Source of the DNA: Pseudomonadales bacterium
GTDB lineage: Bacteria > Pseudomonadota > Gammaproteobacteria > Pseudomonadales > Azotimanducaceae
NCBI GenBank assembly: GCA_965116165.1
Contig: OZ220484.1
Span: forward strand, 3,250,090 to 3,314,089
Direction: 5' to 3'
Length of the DNA stretch: 64,000 nt
In this document: one piece after another, positions 13,508 to 37,910 of the stretch
Layout of the letters: every line of letters begins with the position of its first letter
Position numbering within the stretch: the first letter of the stretch is position 1
Made by a program: the position numbers and the translations under genes
The notes under the pieces: generated by a model
Databases searched by the model: none
The model's input: the letters and a program-made list of their open reading frames with translations, nothing else
What the model was told of the DNA's origin: nothing

Positions 13508-14899
13508 ATGGCATTTGCGATTGCGTTGATCGTTTTAATTGTCGGTTCGGTACTTTTTCATGTGCTGAGCCCCTGGTACCTGACGGAATTGGCGTCGAAT
13601 TGGAGCAGGATCGATTTTACGATTGATGTGACCTTCTGGGTTACGGGCTTCGTTTTCGTCGCCGTCAACGCCTTCATGGCCTATTGTGTCATCCGGTTCC
13701 GCTACAAAAAAAATCGGCGTTCCGAATACGCGCCGGAAAACAAGAAGCTGGAATTCTGGTTGACGGCGATTACAGCCGTCGGCGTCGCGGCCATGCTGGC
13801 GCCCGGGCTGATTGTGTGGGCCGATTTCGTCACGGTGCCGGAGGACGCCCACGAGGTCGAGGCAGTCGGCCAGCAGTGGCATTGGACCTATCGGCTGCCC
13901 GGCGACGACGGCAAGTTCGGCAATGTCGAAACAGGCTTTATCACCGATGACAACCCCTTCGGCATGGATCCGGAAGACCCCCACGGCCAGGACGACCGGC
14001 TGATCGAGAGCAACAGGCTGCACCTGCCGTTGAACAAACCCGTCAAATTCAATCTGCGCTCCAAGGATGTTCTGCACAACTTCACCGTCACCCAGTTCCG
14101 GGTAAAGATGGATCTCGTGCCCGGCCTCGTTTCCTACCTCTGGCTCACCCCCACCCGCACCGGTGAATTTGAAGTATTGTGCGAAGAGCTGTGTGGTATC
14201 GGCCACTTCGCCATGCGGGGCAAGGTGTTTGTGGATGAACAGAACGACTACGATGCCTGGTACGCAGCCCAACCGACCTATGCGGAGCTCGCCAATCGGC
14301 CCGAGGGTGATCCGGCGACGGGTCAGGCCCTCTATGCGATTTGCTCGACCTGCCACGGTCCGGCGGGGGCGGGCATGGTCGCCCTTAACGCGCCGAAGAT
14401 CTCGGGCCAGGAACCCTGGTATCTGCGTCGCCAGCTTCAATATTACAAATCCGGCGCGCGCGGCTCCCACCCCCAGGACATCTACGGGCAACAGATGGTG
14501 CCGATGATGGTCACGCTGACCAACGACCAGGCCATCGAGGATGTCATCGCCTATATCGGAACCTTCCCGGACGAGCCGGCCGAGGCCACCATTGCGGGCG
14601 ATGTCGAGCGCGGCCGCGACCTTTGGGTAACGTGCGGCGCCTGCCACGGCTATGAGGGCGAGGGCATTCAGGCGCTGAACGCCCCGCGCATGGCGGGCAT
14701 GACCGACTGGTACCTGAAGCGGCAACTGGAAAATTTCAAGGCGAACATTCGCGGCCGCCACCCCGACGACCTGCATGGATGGCAGATGGCCGAGATGTCC
14801 AGGGTTCTCAAGCACGACACCGCGCTGGACGATGTCGTCGCCTATATCAATACCTTTGGCCGCGGGGCGGCCGCCACGGATATTGGAGCGGAGGAATAG
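13508..14899 (+). CDS. coxB: Cytochrome c oxidase subunit II with C-terminal di-haem cytochrome c fusion
   Basis: Two N-terminal TM helices, CuA site 'CEELCGIGHFAM', then two haem-c motifs 'CSTCHG' and 'CGACHG'. Confidence 0.9.
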   Translation: MAFAIALIVLIVGSVLFHVLSPWYLTELASNWSRIDFTIDVTFWVTGFVFVAVNAFMAYCVIRFRYKKNRRSEYAPENKKLEFWLTAITAVGVAAMLAPGLIVWADFVTVPEDAHEVEAVGQQWHWTYRLPGDDGKFGNVETGFITDDNPFGMDPEDPHGQDDRLIESNRLHLPLNKPVKFNLRSKDVLHNFTVTQFRVKMDLVPGLVSYLWLTPTRTGEFEVLCEELCGIGHFAMRGKVFVDEQNDYDAWYAAQPTYAELANRPEGDPATGQALYAICSTCHGPAGAGMVALNAPKISGQEPWYLRRQLQYYKSGARGSHPQDIYGQQMVPMMVTLTNDQAIEDVIAYIGTFPDEPAEATIAGDVERGRDLWVTCGACHGYEGEGIQALNAPRMAGMTDWYLKRQLENFKANIRGRHPDDLHGWQMAEMSRVLKHDTALDDVVAYINTFGRGAAATDIGAEE

Positions 14900-25474: not shown

Positions 25475-25550
25475 GCCGGAATAGCTCAGTCGGTAGAGCG
25501 GCTGATTCGTAATCAGTAGGTCGGCGGTTCGAGTCCGCCTTCCGGCACCA
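25475..25550 (+). tRNA. tRNA-Thr (anticodon CGU)
   Basis: Hand-folded cloverleaf. Acceptor GCCGGAA/TTCCGGC, D arm GCTC-AGTCGGTA-GAGC, anticodon arm GCTGA-TTCGTAA-TCAGT (anticodon CGT), variable AGGTC, T arm GGCGG-TTCGAGT-CCGCC, encoded CCA. Confidence 0.93.
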
Positions 25551-26316: not shown

Positions 26317-27519
26317 CTAAAGCAGGGATTTCAAGTCCGTTTCCGGGTTCGCCAGGGCTTCCGCGTTCACCTCCCGCCCGATGAGCCTGCGGCAGATCAT
26401 GAATTCCCTTGGGCTGTTGACCGCATCCACCGCGACGATTTTGCCATGTCTTAGATGGAATACGGCGAACTGGTTTTGAGCCGTGTTGCCGCGAAGCACC
26501 TCGGTATCGCCGTCGGCGGCAAATCCCACCATCTGTAGCTTGAGTTCGTATTGGTCGGACCAGAACCAGGGGACGGAGGCGTAAACCTTGTCTCCCCCAC
26601 ACATATTCGCGGCGGCGATGCGGGCCTGCTCCATGGCATTGGGTACCGATTCGAGGCGCAGGCGGCGGCCGAGCAGGGGGCTGGGGTGATTGGTGCAGTC
26701 GCCGGCGGCGTAGATATTCTGGTCGCTGGTTCGGCAATGGTCGTCGACGACAATGCCGTCGTCGCAGGCGAGCCCCGCTTCTTGCGCCAATTCCACGTTG
26801 GGGACAATGCCGATGCCGACAATCACAATATCCGCGTTGAAGCTCGTATTGCCGCACAAGACTTGGCGAACACGATCACCACCCACCAGTCCCGTCACCG
26901 TTGTTCCGGTATGCAGGCACACCCCCCGGTTACTGTGCAGTTGGTGGTAAAACTCGGACATCGCCGGTGTGGCAACACGTTGCAGGATGCGGCTTTCCAT
27001 TTCCAGAACACGAACCTTCAGGCCCGCGTCGATACATACGGAGGCCACCTCGAGGCCGATATAACCACCACCGACCACTACGACCCCGAGGCCCGGCGAC
27101 ATCTCCGCCCTGATGGCGTCCACATCCGCGATGGTGCGCAGATAGTGCACGCCGGACAGGTCGCCGCCAGTGAGTTGCAGATGCCGAGGACGGCTGCCGG
27201 TGGCGAGCAACAGTTTTTCGTAGGAAAGGGTCTCGCCATCCGCGGTGGCCACCGTTTGGGCGGTTGGATCAATCGATGCAACGCGCGCACCGGATTTGAT
27301 GGATATGTTGCGGTCCGCGTAAAACTTCTCGGGCCGCAGGTAAACGCGTTCCAGACCGTGTTCGCCCGCGAGGTATTGCTTCGATAGCGGGGGGCGTTGA
27401 TAGGGAATGTGCGGCTCGTCGCCGATGATGACGATTTCTCCGTCGTAACCCTCCTGCCGCAGGCTGGCCGCCGCCTGACTGCCCGCCTGGCCGGCTCCCA
27501 CGATGATCATTGCCGACAC
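26317..27519 (-). CDS. FAD-dependent pyridine nucleotide-disulfide oxidoreductase, ferredoxin/rubredoxin reductase type
   Basis: 400 aa. FAD motif 'IIVGAGQAGSQAA', 'PYQRPPLSK', NAD motif 'VVVGGGYIGLEVAS', 'YAAGDC'. The start may be ATG 27510 instead of GTG 27519. Confidence 0.88.
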   Translation of the reverse strand: MSAMIIVGAGQAGSQAAASLRQEGYDGEIVIIGDEPHIPYQRPPLSKQYLAGEHGLERVYLRPEKFYADRNISIKSGARVASIDPTAQTVATADGETLSYEKLLLATGSRPRHLQLTGGDLSGVHYLRTIADVDAIRAEMSPGLGVVVVGGGYIGLEVASVCIDAGLKVRVLEMESRILQRVATPAMSEFYHQLHSNRGVCLHTGTTVTGLVGGDRVRQVLCGNTSFNADIVIVGIGIVPNVELAQEAGLACDDGIVVDDHCRTSDQNIYAAGDCTNHPSPLLGRRLRLESVPNAMEQARIAAANMCGGDKVYASVPWFWSDQYELKLQMVGFAADGDTEVLRGNTAQNQFAVFHLRHGKIVAVDAVNSPREFMICRRLIGREVNAEALANPETDLKSLL

Positions 27520-28049
27520 AAGCTAACCCCATCCGTCAAAACGCGGATTGTATCTATGACCTGTCTTGAAAATACCCATACCATGCAACGGTATTGTATC
27601 AATCCGAAGGGATTGATATACATGGCTATGCGGTGATCGCTGTTACCGCTGTCGCATGCCTTTCCGTGTCCCGCCCGGTATTCCGGCGACAGGGCGTACG
27701 CGCCCGGCGAGCTGGTCCAGGTCGACCACATGACGTACCGCCGCGACGGCTAGGTTCCCAGGGAGTTCCGCGCCGTCCGCCCAACAACCAGGCACAGGGT
27801 CGCCCGGGTGTTCTCGCGGGCCACGGCCGGCAACGCCGGGTGCTTCCTGGCCGCCATGGTCGAGACCATGCCGTTCCCCGTCGCCGCGAATCCGGCACGC
27901 CCGATTGGATGACTTTAGGATGGCCCTGCCCGAGCCAATACATTTGTTCTCAGCAGTCCGTTATAATGAATGTGGTGAATTAATCAGGGTTTCCCTAGGA
28001 TGGGAGAGCGAGACCATGACAAGGACAAGCACGAAGACGAAGGACGATC

Positions 28050-31000
28050 TTGCGGCGCGCGGCCTGCCGCGGCTGTCCGGGCGGGGCGCGAGCGCCTCGC
28101 GCGCGAACCCCTTGCCCCGTGTGCCCCCCCCCCCCCCCCCCCCCGAACGAATCCGGGCGCGGGGCTGAGCCGGTGGGCGCCCCCGGGAGAGCCGCCCGCC
28201 GCCTGAAGGCGGGACTCGCCGCTGCTCTTCTGCCGACCTTCGTCGCCACCCTCGCGCCCCAGGACGCGCAGGCGCAGGCCCCCACTCTTACCGCAACGCC
28301 GGGCGACGGGCAGGTCACGCTCAGTTGGACTCTGTCCAGCACCGGTGTGGGAACCAAGTGGGGGTACAAGATCAATGGCGGCGGATTTACCTGGGCTGGG
28401 ACGCCCCTCGCTATTCCAGGTTCCAACGCCGGCACCAGAGGCCACACGGTAACAGGCCTGACGAACGGAACCTCTTATCAGTTCATTGTCTACTTGCAGA
28501 CTGCGACCAATGCGGCGTACCGTCAAAGCAACCAGGTGAGCGCCACGCCGAATCCACCCACCGCCGGGGTGACGCTTTCGAAGACATCGCTGACGATGAA
28601 TGAGGGGAGCAGCGACACCTACACGGTGAAGCTGGACAAGGCGCCCACGGTGAACGTGACGATCACGGTGAGCGGCGCTTCGGGCGACGTGTCGGTGATG
28701 GGTTCGCCGCTGACCTTCACGCCGAGCAACTTCGGCACGGCGCAGACGATCACGGTGAGCGCGGCCCGCGACGGGGACACGACGGACGACACGGCAACGC
28801 TGACGCACGCGGCGTCGAGCACCGACACGGCCTACGGCGCCTCGCTCGAAATCGACGATGTGGACGTGACGGTGACCGACACGACGCCGACCTTCCAGCT
28901 GCTGACCGACCCGGCGGCGGTGACCGAGGGCACGGACATCAGTCTGACGGTGACCTCCGACAGGTCGATATTCGGCAACTGGCCGGTGCGCCTGACGCTG
29001 GCGGCCCGGAGTTCGAGCACTTTCACGGCGGCGGACATTGCCGGCACGCTGGGGCCGCGCGAGTTCACTGCGAACTTCGGCAGCACCAGCGCCTTCGGCT
29101 CCCCCGTCCCCGGCACGACGGGCACGGTGACCATCCCGACCAGCACCGACTCGGCCACCGAGGGCGCGGAGGCCTACCGGATCACGCTGAGCCAGAGGAC
29201 CACCTTCGTCAGCTACGCGGTCGGCACCGATGCGACCGCCGACGGCACCCTGAACGATGCGGCGGCGACCGGGCCGACCATCACTCTCACCGCCGCGCCG
29301 GGGGACGGGCAGGTGACGTTGTCCTGGACCTATACCAACGACGACGGGGAGGCTTTTGATCACTGGCGGTACGCGCAGAAGAAAGGCGGCGGAAGCTACA
29401 GCGGCCTGGGCGATGAGATTCCCGGCGGCAAGGCCATCCGAACGCACACCGTGACAGGTCTGGAAAACGGCGCCGCATACACTTTCAAGGTCACACGCGG
29501 AGTCACAAGCCCCCCACCTGTGAGGATCCAGACAACAGCACCTCCTTACTCCAACGAAGTCACCGCGACGCCGACGGCCGCTTCCGTTCCCGCCAGGCCG
29601 TCGGGGTTGTCGGCAACGGCGGGCAACGGGCAGGTGACGCTGACGTGGACCGACCCGGAGGACGATTCGATCACGAGGTATCAGGTGCGGCGGAGGAAGG
29701 GCAGCGACGCCTGGGGCGGCTGGACCGCCATCTCCGGCTCCGACGCCGACACCACGGCCCACACGGTGACGGGGCTGGACAACGACAGCGAATACCGCTT
29801 CCGCATCCGGGCGAGGAACGATTCCGGCTTCGGCGCGCAGTCGGCGGTGGTGACGGCCACGCCGACGGAGCCTGCCGGCACGGCGCCCGCCAAGCCGACG
29901 GGCTTTGGCGCGACGAAGGGCGACACGTGGATCTACTTGACCTGGACCAATCCGAACGACGCCAGCATCACCCGCTGGGAATACCAGCAGAAGACTGGGA
30001 GCGAGAACTACGGTTCATGGACACGGATGACGGGTTCCGGCGCGACCACGGTGAAGCATCAGATTACCGGTCTGACCAACGGCACGGTCTACAAATTCAA
30101 GATTCGTGCGGTGAACGGCAACGGCGACGGCGCGGCGTCGGACGAGGTGACGGCGACGCCGAATCCACCGACGGCGCCGGTGTTGACGGCAGCCACTTCG
30201 ACGACCAACCGGAATCTCACGCTCACCTGGACCCATGCCGGCTCGACCGCGGTCGATTACGTCGACGGCGGGGGCGCCAGCGCCCGCACCTGGTGGCAAA
30301 CGGGGCACCGGCTGAAGGGGTCCACCACCTGGACGGCGTACGGCGGGAACGTATCCACCGCGGGCGGCAATTCCCGGCGCACATCGTCGGCGACCCTCGG
30401 CCCCGCCACCTACCCGAACGGAGCATCGGTGGAGGTGGCGATTCGGGCATCGGCCGATTCCGATTTGCTGAACAGGGAGGGTGTCAAGGGCCCCTGGTCG
30501 AACGTGCGGACGGTCACCTACATGGACACCAACACCGCCGCGCTGACGTTTACCGGTTCGCCGGTGACGGTGGCGCCCGGTTCCACGGCCACCTACACGG
30601 TGGCGCTGACGAAGGCGTATGCGGGGACGCTGTCGATCGCGAGCGACGACACGTCGGCGGCGACGGTGAGTCCGCCGAGCCTGGCCTTCACCACCACCAA
30701 CTACAACACGGCGAAGACGGTGACGGTGACCGGGGTGGGCAACGGCACGGCGACGATCGACCACGCCTTCCGGCTGACGGGGGCCGCGGTGGATGCGATA
30801 CCGGACGCCGGCACGGTGGACGTGACGGTGGCCGCCGTGCCGGGCGTGACGGTCTCGCCGACCTCGCTGACGATCGACGAGGGCGGCAGCGGCGCCTACA
30901 CCCTGAGGCTGAACACGGCGCCGGCGGCGAACGTGACGGTGACGGTGGGCGGCGCCTCGGGCGAGGTGACGGTGGCGGGCTCGCCGCTGACGTTCACGCC

Positions 31001-32813
31001 GGCCAACCACGGCACGGCGCAGACGGTGACGGTCGGCGCCGGAGCCGACGCCGACACGGCCAACGACAGGGCGACCCTGACGCACACATCGGCCAGCACC
31101 GACAACGACTACGGCGCCGCGCTCGCCATCGACAGCGTCTCCGTGACGGTGAGGGACACGACGCCGGGCGCCCGGGGGACGGATCCGGCGGAGTCGCCGA
31201 CGGGCGGCATGACCTATCAGCAACTGGACGGCGCCGGCGGCCTGGCGCCCGAGCCGGTGGAGTACGCCCGGGAGCTGGTCGTGGTTCCGGCCGGCAAGAC
31301 GACCGTCAACATCAAGAGCCCGGTGGCCGCGGTGGCCACCGCCACCCGGCACCGGGTGGCGGCGGCGCTCGGGCGGCGCATCCTGGTGGACGAGTCGGTC
31401 CATGTCCGCCTGGCGCTGGGCGGGGGGATGGTGTTCGCCGAGGGGAAGAATGTCGGCGACATCGGGTGGCGCTGGTCCGCGAACCCCCTGAGGCCGCCCT
31501 CGTCGTGCACGATGGAGAATGGCGCGGCGTTCATCAATCCGGACCACGTCACGTCGGCGGGCAAGGCGATCGGGACATCCCTCGTCGCGGGGCGGGCGGG
31601 GGAAAGCGTCGCGGTCTTCCGGCTCGAAACGGGCGCGGACGACGATTTCGGCCTGGACCTCCCGAGCCGGGACGGGGGCAGACACCTTCCCCCCGAGGCG
31701 CGCGCCGTCGCCGGCGGCGGCCCGAAGTGCGGCACCCCCAATGAGCCCACGAGGATATTCGCCGACATCGCCGACCACCTGGCGGTGCCGGCGGGCGGGG
31801 GCGCGTACACGGCGGGCATCTCGCTGCACGGCGACGCGGACGACGCCCTGGCGGGCCGCAACGCGTCCGTGGCTCTGGGCGGCGCGGCCACCATCGTGCG
31901 GGTCGTCGACGGTCTGGACGCCGGGGTGGAGGCGGCGACCCAACCCGTTGTCGCGCACGTGGGCACCTCCCCGCAACCGTTCCTGTGGTTCCGGGACGCG
32001 GCCGCGGCCGGCGGCGTGACGGGCGCGGCGGTTCTGGGCTCGGCCAGGGCGACGATCGCGGGGAACAACCTCCACAATCCCACCACCGGCGGGATCGCCA
32101 CGGGGAGCGACCTGCTGCCCGACGGCAGCGTCAACCTCGCGGTTGAGGGGGACTTCTCGATCGGGGCGTTCAGCCTGGGGATTCCCGCGGACGCGGCGGA
32201 CCCGTCGGGGGTCTGCCCGGCGGCCGGCGCCGCGGGGTCGCCGGCGACGGGCAACCTGGCGCCGGCGGCCGGCGGCCCGCCGGACAGGGCGACGCTCGGG
32301 GGGCGGAACGCGGGGACGCACCATCTGTGCGTTCGGGTGGCCGCCGCGAACGGGGCCCCGATTCCGGCCGGGCTGTACCGCGGGACGGTCAGCCGCACCG
32401 GGGTCGGCGACGCCGACGAGACGCTGGCGACGGGTGTGATCGGCCGGATCCGGCGCAACGGGACGACGGCCCGGCTGACCTATCTGACCGCGTCGGGGAA
32501 GTACAACCAGCGCCTGATCATCGTCAACGAGGGGGCGCGCGACGCGAGGTACGACCTGGGCTCGCTGGTGACGGAGGCGGGGACGCGGGCGACGCCGACG
32601 GCGGCGGCGGTCGGCACGGTCCCGGCGGGCGGTCAGGTGGTGCTGCGGGTTTCGGACCTGGTCGAGTTCGCGGGTCCGCGTCGGCGGGCGTCGGCGACGC
32701 TGAGCGTGGTCGCGGCGCCGGGGGACATCCGGGTGGCGACGACCCAGGTGAACCTGCTGGACGGCAGCACGGACACGCTCCACATCCCGGTGCGCGGCGC
32801 CACGGTCAACTAG
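28050..32813 (+). CDS. Very large secreted/surface repeat protein (5 FN3-like domains, two Ig/Calx-beta-like ~105-aa modules, ~520-aa uncharacterised C-terminal region)
   Basis: Single 4.7-kb ORF with a Sec-type signal 'RRLKAGLAAALLPTFVATLAPQDAQA'. FN3-like units open with 'GDGQVTLSWT' (x2), 'GNGQVTLTWT', 'TWIYLTWT' and 'NLTLTWT', and contain 'HTVTGLxNGxxYxF'. Two similar modules lie at aa ~170-277 and ~930-1040. Start uncertain: TTG 28050 (reads through the C tract as Pro7) or GTG 28173 just before the signal peptide. Confidence 0.85.
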   Translation: MRRAACRGCPGGARAPRARTPCPVCPPPPPPPNESGRGAEPVGAPGRAARRLKAGLAAALLPTFVATLAPQDAQAQAPTLTATPGDGQVTLSWTLSSTGVGTKWGYKINGGGFTWAGTPLAIPGSNAGTRGHTVTGLTNGTSYQFIVYLQTATNAAYRQSNQVSATPNPPTAGVTLSKTSLTMNEGSSDTYTVKLDKAPTVNVTITVSGASGDVSVMGSPLTFTPSNFGTAQTITVSAARDGDTTDDTATLTHAASSTDTAYGASLEIDDVDVTVTDTTPTFQLLTDPAAVTEGTDISLTVTSDRSIFGNWPVRLTLAARSSSTFTAADIAGTLGPREFTANFGSTSAFGSPVPGTTGTVTIPTSTDSATEGAEAYRITLSQRTTFVSYAVGTDATADGTLNDAAATGPTITLTAAPGDGQVTLSWTYTNDDGEAFDHWRYAQKKGGGSYSGLGDEIPGGKAIRTHTVTGLENGAAYTFKVTRGVTSPPPVRIQTTAPPYSNEVTATPTAASVPARPSGLSATAGNGQVTLTWTDPEDDSITRYQVRRRKGSDAWGGWTAISGSDADTTAHTVTGLDNDSEYRFRIRARNDSGFGAQSAVVTATPTEPAGTAPAKPTGFGATKGDTWIYLTWTNPNDASITRWEYQQKTGSENYGSWTRMTGSGATTVKHQITGLTNGTVYKFKIRAVNGNGDGAASDEVTATPNPPTAPVLTAATSTTNRNLTLTWTHAGSTAVDYVDGGGASARTWWQTGHRLKGSTTWTAYGGNVSTAGGNSRRTSSATLGPATYPNGASVEVAIRASADSDLLNREGVKGPWSNVRTVTYMDTNTAALTFTGSPVTVAPGSTATYTVALTKAYAGTLSIASDDTSAATVSPPSLAFTTTNYNTAKTVTVTGVGNGTATIDHAFRLTGAAVDAIPDAGTVDVTVAAVPGVTVSPTSLTIDEGGSGAYTLRLNTAPAANVTVTVGGASGEVTVAGSPLTFTPANHGTAQTVTVGAGADADTANDRATLTHTSASTDNDYGAALAIDSVSVTVRDTTPGARGTDPAESPTGGMTYQQLDGAGGLAPEPVEYARELVVVPAGKTTVNIKSPVAAVATATRHRVAAALGRRILVDESVHVRLALGGGMVFAEGKNVGDIGWRWSANPLRPPSSCTMENGAAFINPDHVTSAGKAIGTSLVAGRAGESVAVFRLETGADDDFGLDLPSRDGGRHLPPEARAVAGGGPKCGTPNEPTRIFADIADHLAVPAGGGAYTAGISLHGDADDALAGRNASVALGGAATIVRVVDGLDAGVEAATQPVVAHVGTSPQPFLWFRDAAAAGGVTGAAVLGSARATIAGNNLHNPTTGGIATGSDLLPDGSVNLAVEGDFSIGAFSLGIPADAADPSGVCPAAGAAGSPATGNLAPAAGGPPDRATLGGRNAGTHHLCVRVAAANGAPIPAGLYRGTVSRTGVGDADETLATGVIGRIRRNGTTARLTYLTASGKYNQRLIIVNEGARDARYDLGSLVTEAGTRATPTAAAVGTVPAGGQVVLRVSDLVEFAGPRRRASATLSVVAAPGDIRVATTQVNLLDGSTDTLHIPVRGATVN
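28124..28144 (+). repeat. Homopolymeric tract, 21 consecutive C
   Basis: Counted directly: 7 C at 28124-28130, 10 C at 28131-28140 and 4 C at 28141-28144. By far the longest homopolymer I saw in the window (others are <=8 nt). Confidence 0.95.
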
Positions 32814-36167: not shown

Positions 36168-37736
36168 TCACGGTGCCTGCCGATGGGTCCGCTTGGACAC
36201 ACCGGCGGAAAACGATCCGCCGGACACGCCCGATTCGTCGCCATCGCTGTTGTTCTCCAGACGCTTGTCGGGCCACGCGAACGCTGGCCAGGCACCGCGC
36301 GGCGTGGCTCCGCCGATGTCCGGCGCACCCGCGTCCGCGCCCGCCTCAACTAGCGCTTGGGCCAGATCGACCCATTGGCACTCTGCGGCAATGTGCAGGG
36401 GCGTCCGTCCTAGGGCATCCCTCGCCTCAAGATCGGATCCGGCGGCCATCAGGCGTCTCAGGTCATCAACTTGTCCGAGGGTTGCCGCAGTGTGCAGGCC
36501 GGGGTCTTGCATCGCCCTGACGGCGGCGTACCGAACTAGTGATGGAATCGGGCAGTCGCAATGCCATCCCCGGCTTTGCAATTGCAGAAATCCCAGTTCG
36601 ATCAGGGCGTCGCGCAACGTTTTTGACGCCCGTTCGTCCGCCGGGCCCGCCTCGCCGATGATCCGGATGGCGTCGCCTGGTCTGACAGGGCTGGCCGCGT
36701 CGATGGCGGCCATGGCGCGTCCCACCCATTGGTCATGGTCCAGCACGACCCCCTGGTAGCGCCCCCCGTAGTAGGAATCTCGCGTCTTGGCCGCCACCCG
36801 CCGCACGGCGTCGATATCCACTCCTTCGAGCGAAGCCGGATTTCTGGACACGGCGAGCGCCTCGGCCAGAGCGCCAAGAAATCCGTTGGTGTGCATCGGC
36901 CAGCCCTGGGTATCGAGGATCAGTGCGTCGGACCATGGTTCCCCGAGGGCATCGGGCGCGTCCACCCCGAAATGTCGCAGCCAACTGTCAGACAGGTCTC
37001 GGCACTCGGCGGGGGAAAGACGCTCCAGGACATGAATGCACTTTGCCTCGTTCGAGTAGCGGGAGATGTTGATGCCCTCCCGCTGCAAATGGCTTTGTAG
37101 ATAACCGAGACCCGCGAACACGGGCAGGATGGGGATATCGCCGACACGGCCCAGATGCAGGGACCGCAGAGCGTTGGCCGGCGGGGTGGACGGTTCCACC
37201 ATTTGCGCCTCGTCGACCATCACGATGATCGGGGCTGGAAACGCAGCCGCCCGGTCCTGCCGCAGAAGCCTCCGCGACCCCGCGACGGTCGCCTGCTCCG
37301 CATCCTCGCCGATAGCCTGATCACCTCCCGACAGATAGGTGGCGAGGGCACGAATGATGGCACCGCCCCATTTCTCCAAGGCGGATTCTGGCAGCGTCTG
37401 GCGAATGACCCTGCCTAGGCTCTCGACGTTGCCCAGCGCATCGACATTGAGGTTGACGCAGATCGGATTGTGCGGTCCGGGCGTGCCGCTCCCCCATTTT
37501 TCCTGAAGATGCCTGAGCAGCGCGGTTTTACCCGCCCCCGGTGCCCCCTGCACCAGGCGGGTCAGACCGGGGTCGTTCGCGTCGATGTCGCCGGACAGCC
37601 ACATCTGGTGGGCGAGCGTGGCGGCATTGCCGATGTCTTGGATAACCGCGTTCCGTCCGACAAAAACCGGAGGTTGGGCGCGTGCTCCCTTGTTGGCATA
37701 TTGGGTCAGGGATACGCGCCGCTCCTCATCGTTCAT
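36168..37736 (-). CDS. ORC/STAND-like P-loop NTPase with C-terminal ankyrin repeats
   Basis: 'FVGRNAVIQDI', Walker A 'GAPGAGKTALL', Walker B 'IIVMVDEAQ', 'LERLSPAECRDL' (AAA_16/Arch_ATPase-like layout). C-terminal ANK repeats 'GLHTAATLGQVDDLRRLMAAGSDLEARDALGRTPLHIAAECQWVDLAQALVEAGAD'. Start set at ATG 37736. Confidence 0.75.
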   Translation of the reverse strand: MNDEERRVSLTQYANKGARAQPPVFVGRNAVIQDIGNAATLAHQMWLSGDIDANDPGLTRLVQGAPGAGKTALLRHLQEKWGSGTPGPHNPICVNLNVDALGNVESLGRVIRQTLPESALEKWGGAIIRALATYLSGGDQAIGEDAEQATVAGSRRLLRQDRAAAFPAPIIVMVDEAQMVEPSTPPANALRSLHLGRVGDIPILPVFAGLGYLQSHLQREGINISRYSNEAKCIHVLERLSPAECRDLSDSWLRHFGVDAPDALGEPWSDALILDTQGWPMHTNGFLGALAEALAVSRNPASLEGVDIDAVRRVAAKTRDSYYGGRYQGVVLDHDQWVGRAMAAIDAASPVRPGDAIRIIGEAGPADERASKTLRDALIELGFLQLQSRGWHCDCPIPSLVRYAAVRAMQDPGLHTAATLGQVDDLRRLMAAGSDLEARDALGRTPLHIAAECQWVDLAQALVEAGADAGAPDIGGATPRGAWPAFAWPDKRLENNSDGDESGVSGGSFSAGVSKRTHRQAP

Positions 37737-37834
37737 CGTCGAGCTCCCTCCCGCGGGCCTTGGGTTCTTGCGAGCACCGTGGCGTGCTAGGGAAGCGGCC
37801 AGTGCGGATTCATTCTTGATCGGTAGTGTCGCCG

Positions 37835-37910
37835 CTTGACATTTGCATGAACCGAACATTGTGCGAGCCCCGGCTCGGCGGCATTCGAAAAGTCAAATTG
37901 ATGCAACACC
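37835..37910 (-). repeat. MITE/REP-like family A, copy A3
   Basis: CTTGACATTTGCATGAACCGAACATTGTGCGAGCCCCGGCTCGGCGGCATTCGAAAAGTCAAATTGATGCAACACC is the reverse orientation of A7. Confidence 0.8.

Follow-up and report, generated by a model that had tools for sequence, protein, structure and literature searches.

The DNA analysed here is a 64-kb stretch of a Pseudomonadales chromosome (OZ220484.1), hereafter the window, which carries on its forward strand the gene of a giant secreted protein with fibronectin type III (Fn3) repeats. An uninterrupted run of 21 cytosines (28124..28144, +) lies at the 5' end of this gene. In our judgment, the tract is probably the hypermutable core of a 5' expression cassette, which would act as a slipped-strand contingency switch. 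The initial annotation of the window had described the tract as a feature of a single gene; instead, it proved to be the hallmark of a horizontally shared multigene family, whose 5' cassette was found at 14 loci.

The tract is real and far beyond chance expectation. From the base composition of the window (C = 0.297, G = 0.318; G+C = 61.5%), approximately 3e-6 runs of C or G of at least 21 nt are expected in 64 kb. The homopolymers ranking below C21 are A8 at 13706-13713 and then several of 7, which confirms the limit of 8 nt that the initial annotation had given for all other runs. As in contingency loci, the homopolymer is thus longer than composition predicts (21 against a maximum of 8). 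The proline run that it encodes was attributed to a DNA homopolymer rather than to a selected proline linker because CCC accounts for just 26 of the 91 proline codons of the giant open reading frame (ORF) and the tract lengths are not multiples of three.

The tract is part of a short leader ORF with its own translation signals. A Shine-Dalgarno (SD)-like GGGAGAG (28002..28008, +) is located 7 nt 5' of the leader ATG 28016, and translation from this ATG runs through the tract (MTRTSTKTKDDLAARGLPRLSGRGASASRANPLPRVPPPPPPPERIRARG and then the stop; 28016..28168, +). The leader stop, TGA 28166-28168, leaves 4 nt before GTG 28173, and an upstream stop within a few nucleotides of a start is what translational coupling calls for; the coupling geometry had been recognized previously, and it held under reinspection. 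The last C is separated from GTG 28173 by 28 nt, and the GTG is followed by GAPGRAARRLKAGLAAALLPTFVATLAPQDAQA. Two boxes flank the tract: the leader box GTCCGGGCGGGGCGCGAGCGCCTCGCGCGCGAACCCC (28075..28111, +), which occurs once in the window, and the junction box CCGGGCGCGGGGCTGAGCCGGTG (28153..28175, +), which holds both TGA 28166-28168 and GTG 28173-28175. A third-frame TGA within CGC CTG AAG (28204..28206, +) ends the leader ORF at one C more. The SD of the leader ATG is strong, whereas GTG 28173 is preceded only by a weak SD-like GGGG/GAG. ATG 28000, ATG 28016, and TTG 28050 occupy all three frames 5' of the tract. Whatever the number of C, the giant ORF can be entered in frame from one of these three codons, of which only ATG 28016 has a well-spaced SD. 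TTG 28050 opens an ORF of 1,587 codons in which the tract is read as Pro7, as the initial annotation had stated, and the public gene call P0001 starts there.

Tract lengths from 15 to 26 C were simulated at the window locus. With 20 or 23 C, ATG 28016 was fused in frame to the giant ORF. With 21 C, the leader stopped 4 nt ahead of GTG 28173, and with 22 C, the leader stop was the TGA 31 nt inside the giant ORF. The simulation reproduced the frame arithmetic proposed earlier, and a one-unit change altered the frame, as in a contingency locus. If the count of 21 is correct, the state of the window copy is coupled restart.

Related loci were gathered from the DNA of protein homologues and from a scan of a species-representative genome collection with a 26-nt leader pattern. 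As a result, 14 loci with the 5' architecture of the window (the window included), all heading giant Fn3-repeat proteins, were found in at least seven chromosomes or contigs. The order of the cassette is a loose upstream region, an SD-like purine run, the start codon, the leader, the box, the poly-C tract, the junction, and the signal peptide. The leader ORF has 7 to 45 codons, the box GGCGGGGCGCGAGCGCCTCGCGCGCG is present in most copies, and the tract is followed by 25 to 66 nt ending in CCGGGCGCGGGGCTGAGCCGGTG. The 26-nt core of the leader box, for which three two-fold degenerate positions were allowed, was exact in five copies. It occurs in OZ219754.1 (labelled Candidatus Binatia, at least five copies), OZ220475.1 (labelled Pseudohongiella), and OZ220465.1, OZ219788.1, and OZ219790.1 (labelled Alphaproteobacteria). 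Several of the sequences with a cassette (ctg6941c, ctg6925c, ctg6950c, and ctg6933c) are circular and belong, each as a contig of its own, to a single ENA assembly (ERZ24894574), and the further locus L017 lies on ctg6879l of the same assembly, the suffix "l" being read as linear. On a global scale the cassette is rare. Its N-terminus (51 aa) gave 17 matches among 1.84 billion representative proteins, and the junction box gave none in the JGI metagenome contigs. Two sets of candidates were rejected: 25 JGI matches to the signal-peptide box were chance GC-rich matches, none with a cassette, and L013 (Limnocylindria), from the genome scan, was a chance match as well.

Twelve of the cassettes were aligned. 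The SD-like run with a start codon 6-9 nt on was present in 11 of the 12 (L012 has a weak GGGGGA), and both are kept in L015 though its leader is otherwise unrelated. No copy has an in-frame stop codon between the leader ATG and the tract. The junction box is the best-conserved part of the cassette: the TGA begins 7 nt before the GTG in most loci, even with changed neighbours (TTGAACC in L018), and L002 has a TAG plus one extra base in place of the TGA. The third-frame TGA (28204..28206 in the window) is kept in all 12 aligned cassettes, and the GTG start in 13 of the 14 loci. All the giant ORFs are intact regardless of the leader frame. An out-of-frame ATG pair of the window leader (GGATGAGATCATG) was found in L001-type leaders too.

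The tracts differ in length between the copies, with uninterrupted runs of 9-21 C at 13 loci and one decayed remnant. The leader stops 4 nt before the GTG at five loci: the window (21 C), L015 (19 C), L003 (15 C), L010 (9 C), and L012, which has the interrupted remnant CCCCCTCCCTC. It stops 31 nt past the GTG at another five, L006 (19 C, then A and four more C), L002 (17 C), L017 (16 C), L001 (14 C), and L011 (9 C), and it is fused to the giant ORF at four, L016 (18 C), L004 (17 C), L008 (15 C), and L018 (14 C). The comparison with related sequences, which the initial annotation had recommended, therefore returned all three frames, as a switch predicts. L001 and L008, two copies on the same chromosome, share 97.5% identity across 6.6 kb. 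Next to the tract, identity is 99.6% in the 250 nt on its upstream side (one substitution) and 100% in the 1,150 nt on its downstream side; the step from 14 C in L001 to 15 C in L008 turns a 65-codon leader ORF into a 1,846-codon fusion. Polymorphic length between conserved flanks, another mark of contingency loci, was thus found between paralogues or xenologues, not at one locus across strains. Outside these tracts, the roughly 210 kb of sequence that was retrieved contain hardly any run of 9 nt or more. Tract decay does occur, as the tract is interrupted in L012 and lost in P0009, yet most copies keep at least 14 pure C.

Several side observations were made on the cassettes. In an alphaproteobacterial chromosome, L014 (760-830) has a C9 and breaks off after GGGCTA into unrelated sequence without a giant ORF; as a truncated or orphan cassette, it was left out of the 14 scored loci. 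A second, partial junction box (CTCCGGGCGCGGGGCTGATCCGGTG) lies 5' of the leader SD-ATG in L003 (2914-2937) and appears to have been left by an earlier rearrangement of the cassette. In L008, a second leader-like segment (734-1097), 84% identical to L001 2366-2714, is found beyond the first gene of the same 8-kb stretch, which suggests neighbouring family members or cassette remnants. Finally, L011, also from an alphaproteobacterial chromosome, has a C11 (7504-7514) in an unrelated, intergenic-looking context.

The mechanism that we propose runs as follows. Ribosomes would start at the SD-ATG (28002-28018) and translate the short leader into the tract, which is read as proline in any frame. 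Slipped-strand mispairing at replication would add or remove C and thereby choose one of three outcomes. In one, the leader ATG is in frame with the giant ORF, and an N-terminal extension would precede the signal peptide. In another, the leader ends at the TGA 4 nt before GTG 28173, and coupled re-initiation would be possible. In the remaining one, the leader ends 31 nt past the GTG; ribosomes would pass over the start, and expression would probably be low or off. Each family member would switch on its own and heritably, so that a clone would display changing subsets of surface proteins. The strong SD-ATG, the open leader, the conserved stops in both alternative frames, and the copy without a GTG all indicate that ribosomes translate into the tract and that its length decides the outcome. 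In that copy, L017, AAG replaces the GTG and the leader ATG is out of frame (C16), and a 2,662-codon ORF is intact (L017 1544-1590); since the ORF is intact although the GTG is lost, its translation has to come in by way of the tract. L017 speaks for a productive fusion state, and the TGA-GCCG-GTG geometry, together with the near-universal GTG, speaks likewise for a productive coupled restart. C or G tracts of such length are known to be hypervariable and to cause phase variation in Bordetella, Neisseria, and Campylobacter (PMC1891110, PMC2831843). While the anatomy of the cassette, its conservation, the length differences between copies, and their frame consequences are direct observations, we infer that the tract is hypermutable and its changes reversible, and likewise which frames are ON. 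The dependence of expression or of the N-terminal form on tract length, as put forward in the initial annotation, is accordingly supported rather than demonstrated by comparison of sequences.

Some points weigh against a switch. The length variation was observed between copies of the cassette rather than within one locus, and the collections contain nothing close to the window genome (apart from itself, the nearest match of its reductase is 83% identical). The leader peptide is not conserved, and by our reading of the alignment its substitutions have no third-position bias. A near-equal split between the frames also fits neutral drift if the GTG acts independently. The form of the contig names (ctgNNNNc and ctgNNNNl) points to metagenomes assembled from long reads, and if so, the lengths, including 14 versus 15, can be consensus errors. 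Slippage of RNA polymerase or ribosomes on a long tract may blur a binary switch, and a fusion product would carry approximately 50-55 residues before the signal peptide, which is unusually long.

The family is also mosaic, and the tract may be both its hypermutable element and a junction between its parts. In blastn comparisons, window 28144-31035 was 90-94% identical to L001 (2973-5858), L008, and L015; this homology starts at 28144, the last C, and ends near 31035, whereas homology to the L003 leader was limited to 27998-28104. Over the first kb past the cassette, the window is 97.6% identical to L001, which is labelled Binatia. L015 is 98.8% identical to L001 3' of the tract and has no match to it 5' of the tract. 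The contrast between a 97.6% identical gene body and a neighbour gene with at most 83% identity points to recent transfer or recombination between phyla. The family thus combines a common 5' cassette with Fn3 bodies that can be exchanged and with C-terminal domains specific to each lineage. In the stretch L015 583-1951, an insertion sequence (IS)-like gene of 350 aa lies directly 5' of the cassette; it has weak HTH_29 and HTH_32 matches and is transposase-like. Near its 5' end, its coding region contains a G/C tract of 17 nt (1574-1590), which apparently splits the HTH over two frames, and a further tract, of 21 nt, is located at the 3' end of the gene (586-606); the cassette C19 lies at 1933-1951. 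Because the IS-like gene carries such tracts, long C/G tracts are not limited to the adhesin family in the L015 genome. It is conceivable, though we are inclined to doubt it, that the cassette, from its promoter region to the signal peptide, is a self-contained, horizontally mobile switch module spread across phyla among the co-resident bacteria of one host-associated community, with the poly-C as both switch and recombination joint and with C-terminal anchors of each lineage's own. If so, variation of giant Fn3 surface proteins would be shared community-wide, and in symbionts rather than pathogens.

Other explanations were weighed against the slipped-strand switch. A fixed cis-regulatory leader, which would act at the RNA or translation level in every cell to give low or conditional expression with no heritable switch, seems unlikely. 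It might take the form of an EF-P-dependent polyproline stall, of polymerase or ribosome slippage that lets a constant small share of ribosomes into the giant ORF, or of a Rho-loading site shielded by leader translation. Owing to the conserved SD-ATG, the tract is translated in every copy; it always codes for 3-7 or more consecutive prolines, and a homopolymer that exceeds the RNA-DNA hybrid in length should permit transcript realignment, all of which would suit such a leader. Moreover, Rho sites shielded by upstream ORFs (uORFs) are established in tnaC, speFL, and cruR (PMC12360218). However, a fixed leader should prefer one length, and anything from 9 to 21 C was observed, with different numbers even in near-identical paralogues. 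As to a Rho site, the tract has G-rich flanks and only 21 C-rich nucleotides, whereas rut sites are C>G regions, optimally of 60-90 nt (PMC12360218), and the C-rich, G-poor, unstructured stretch of some 30-90 nt expected of a uORF-shielded attenuator was not found at the window locus. Furthermore, the leader RNA structure was no better than that of shuffled controls (z = 0.32), and the leader had no Rfam match: against Rfam 15, only tRNA-Thr reached the gathering score in the window, and nothing was found at E <= 1 in 27850-28300.

We consider it decidedly unlikely that the tract is mainly a recombination or module junction, a breakpoint-prone or homology-poor joint at which cassettes and bodies are swapped among paralogues and among species, with only an incidental effect on expression. 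The homology edges at 28144 and 28104, the L015 sequence that resembles L001 on one side of the tract only, the C21 and C17 flanking the IS-like gene beside the L015 cassette, and the 97.6% identity to a gene labelled Binatia would all follow from such a junction. It leaves unexplained the SD-ATG, the open leader, and the stops in both alternative frames; blastn cannot align low-complexity sequence, so the break at the tract is partly a method artefact, and the roles of junction and switch can coexist. A neutral passenger is very unlikely in our view. GTG 28173 would then always be used, the leader ORF would be without effect, and the tract would be kept by expansion bias and by hitch-hiking with a spreading cassette, in agreement with the roughly even split of frames, the GTG in 13 of 14 loci, its choice by gene callers in 28 homologues, the intact ORFs, and the recent origin of the copies (85-100% nucleotide identity), which leaves little time for decay. 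Nevertheless, the GTG has a weak SD compared with the leader ATG, L017 keeps an 8-kb ORF with no GTG, and most copies retain 14 or more pure C although decay has been seen in two. Consensus sequences from long reads err mainly in long homopolymers, and the initial annotation had considered an assembly or polishing artefact. As the origin of the tract, this is practically inconceivable: the tract recurs at the matching cassette position in at least seven separately assembled chromosomes or contigs (14 loci), and proline runs are found in many independently called proteins. Its existence is hence not an artefact, and the exact count of 21 may err by a base or more.

The giant ORF (28173..32813, +) has 1,546 codons from GTG, and its product is 100% identical to P0001, with many homologues on contigs of megabase size. 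The protein belongs to an Fn3-repeat family, since PF00041 scored 111 bits against a gathering cut-off of 25 (E = 2.5e-32); NCBIfam gave no match for it. The gene has a G+C content of 66-77%, above the window mean. The predicted Sec-type signal peptide region (VGAPGRAARRLKAGLAAALLPTFVATLAPQDAQA; 28173..28274, +) was judged by inspection of the translation, which upheld the Sec-type signal described previously: a basic n-region, a hydrophobic core, and an AxA motif are all recognizable, and cleavage is likely to follow AQA. Of the 120 best homologues, 45 share this N-terminus: 28, with MGALGRTARRLKAG..APQDAQA, have the GTG as their called start, 16 stay open 5' of it through P3-P8, and one stays open 5' of it with no proline run. 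One more relative has 11 prolines.

The C-terminal domain of approximately 590 aa (31040..32810, +) is the window genome's own. No nucleotide homology to the other loci was detected past about 31040 (blastn), nor was there a match in Pfam, NCBIfam, or PDB sequences (the PDB query being the C-terminal 546 aa). The domain is nearly identical in P0001, P0002, P0254, and P0004, which are the at least four family members of the window genome. The C-terminus of P0011, the ctg6925c copy, resembles an autotransporter-type beta-barrel with a final W. By their sequences, the C-terminal modules appear to be lineage-specific anchors on shared passenger regions. Public gene calls of the family begin at the leader ATG, at an arbitrary in-frame codon 5' of the tract, or at the GTG, as observed by comparing P0001, P0010, P0065, and P0107 with P0003, P0011, and others. 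Because the called start depends on the tract length, the annotations, protein lengths, and clusters of this family are inconsistent, which is a practical warning to their users.

Regarding transcription, the initial annotation had offered TATAAT (27961..27966, +) as the -10 element of the promoter. The hexamer is present and remains a candidate by its sequence, and a consensus scan found no complete sigma-70 promoter there. In the 12 aligned cassettes, the corresponding columns read TATAAA, TATAAG, TACAGG, or TATGGA, that is, loosely TAnAnn. A promoter and terminator scan of the window locus returned nothing. The GC-rich stretch from the tract to the GTG has no -10-like hexamer, and the tract is about 110 nt 3' of the SD-ATG; the Bordetella-type placement, with the tract between an activator site or -35 and a -10 hexamer, was not found at this locus.

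The region around the locus is ordinary chromosome with pilB, pilC, argJ, ctaD, gap, relA, plsB, gspD, and lepA. The upstream neighbour of the giant gene is a ferredoxin-reductase-type gene (26317-27519, -), and an MFS transporter gene lies downstream. The named relatives of the reductase are from metagenome-assembled genomes (MAGs) of Pseudomonadales and Gammaproteobacteria, with 72-75% identity, and apart from itself no relative above 83% was found in the collections searched; the organism is thus probably a gammaproteobacterium, with no close relative sequenced there. A tRNA-Thr (25475-25550) is located 2.6 kb 5' of the giant gene, and despite it no integrase was found among the neighbouring genes. 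Positions 27300-28500 showed no inverted repeats or invertible element, and the genes on either side are those of the reductase and the MFS transporter; the flanking inverted repeats and nearby recombinase of an invertible promoter or shufflon were likewise not found. Farther downstream, window 36168-37859 (-) encodes a protein of 563 aa that combines ankyrin repeats with an AAA/NACHT-like NTPase region and is another "eukaryotic-like" protein of a kind common in host-associated bacteria.

Phase variation by simple repeats is textbook knowledge for mucosal pathogens and, to our knowledge, essentially undescribed in uncultured host-associated environmental symbionts. Our literature search found no paper that ties homopolymeric tracts or phase variation to sponge-type symbionts or to their Fn3 proteins. 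If the switch works as proposed, clonal symbionts would keep varying the giant adhesin-like proteins that they display, which would bear on persistence in a host that feeds by phagocytosis. Nearly identical cassettes, and gene bodies with up to 97.6% nucleotide identity, under different phylum labels would, moreover, represent a traceable recent exchange of a regulated module between phyla.

Functionally, the closest known systems are genes with poly-G/C tracts in the 5' coding region: Neisseria pilC, hmbR, and hpuA, the Campylobacter jejuni contingency genes, and Bordetella tcfA and bapC. As in these genes, a G/C homopolymer lies just past a start codon and either before or inside the signal-peptide region, several loci are present per genome, and a one-base change shifts the frame of a surface or secreted protein. 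The tracts of Bordetella autotransporter genes vary within single cultures (PMC1891110). Unlike those coding tracts, the window tract belongs to a separate leader ORF with its own SD-ATG, a second start (GTG) follows downstream, and conserved stops give three outcomes rather than ON/OFF. The hosts also differ from those pathogens, being uncultured and apparently host-associated, and, unlike the classical cases, nearly the same cassette is found in chromosomes of different phyla in one community.

The fim2, fim3, fimX, and fimN genes of Bordetella likewise form a paralogous surface-gene family with a conserved upstream long poly-C of varying length. Their C-stretches range from C7 to C22 across species and from 10 to 18 among B. 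pertussis strains (PMC1891110). The fim tract, however, lies between the activator site and the -10 and acts on transcription, whereas the window tract is 3' of the SD-ATG. In Haemophilus influenzae lic1 and lic2A, repeat number selects strong, weak, or no expression via alternative starts, and the window resembles them in having several start codons in different frames upstream of the tract. The lic genes differ in their tetranucleotide repeats and have neither a coupled downstream start nor a cross-phylum cassette. The tpr genes of Treponema pallidum are paralogous surface-protein genes with variable-length poly-G in a conserved 5' region. They share with the window family these paralogues and variable homopolymers; in contrast, their tracts are reported as transcriptional, they are confined to a single species, and the genes are far smaller.

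As regards the encoded protein, the giant secreted arrays of Fn3/Ig-like domains resemble the Fn3-rich "eukaryotic-like proteins" that are a recognised signature of sponge symbiont genomes. The named homologues include MAGs of Aphanocapsa feldmannii 277cV and Synechococcus sp. SB0675_bin_7, both of which we take to be sponge-associated. Compared with all these systems, the mechanism is of a known kind, and the architecture and the ecological setting are new.

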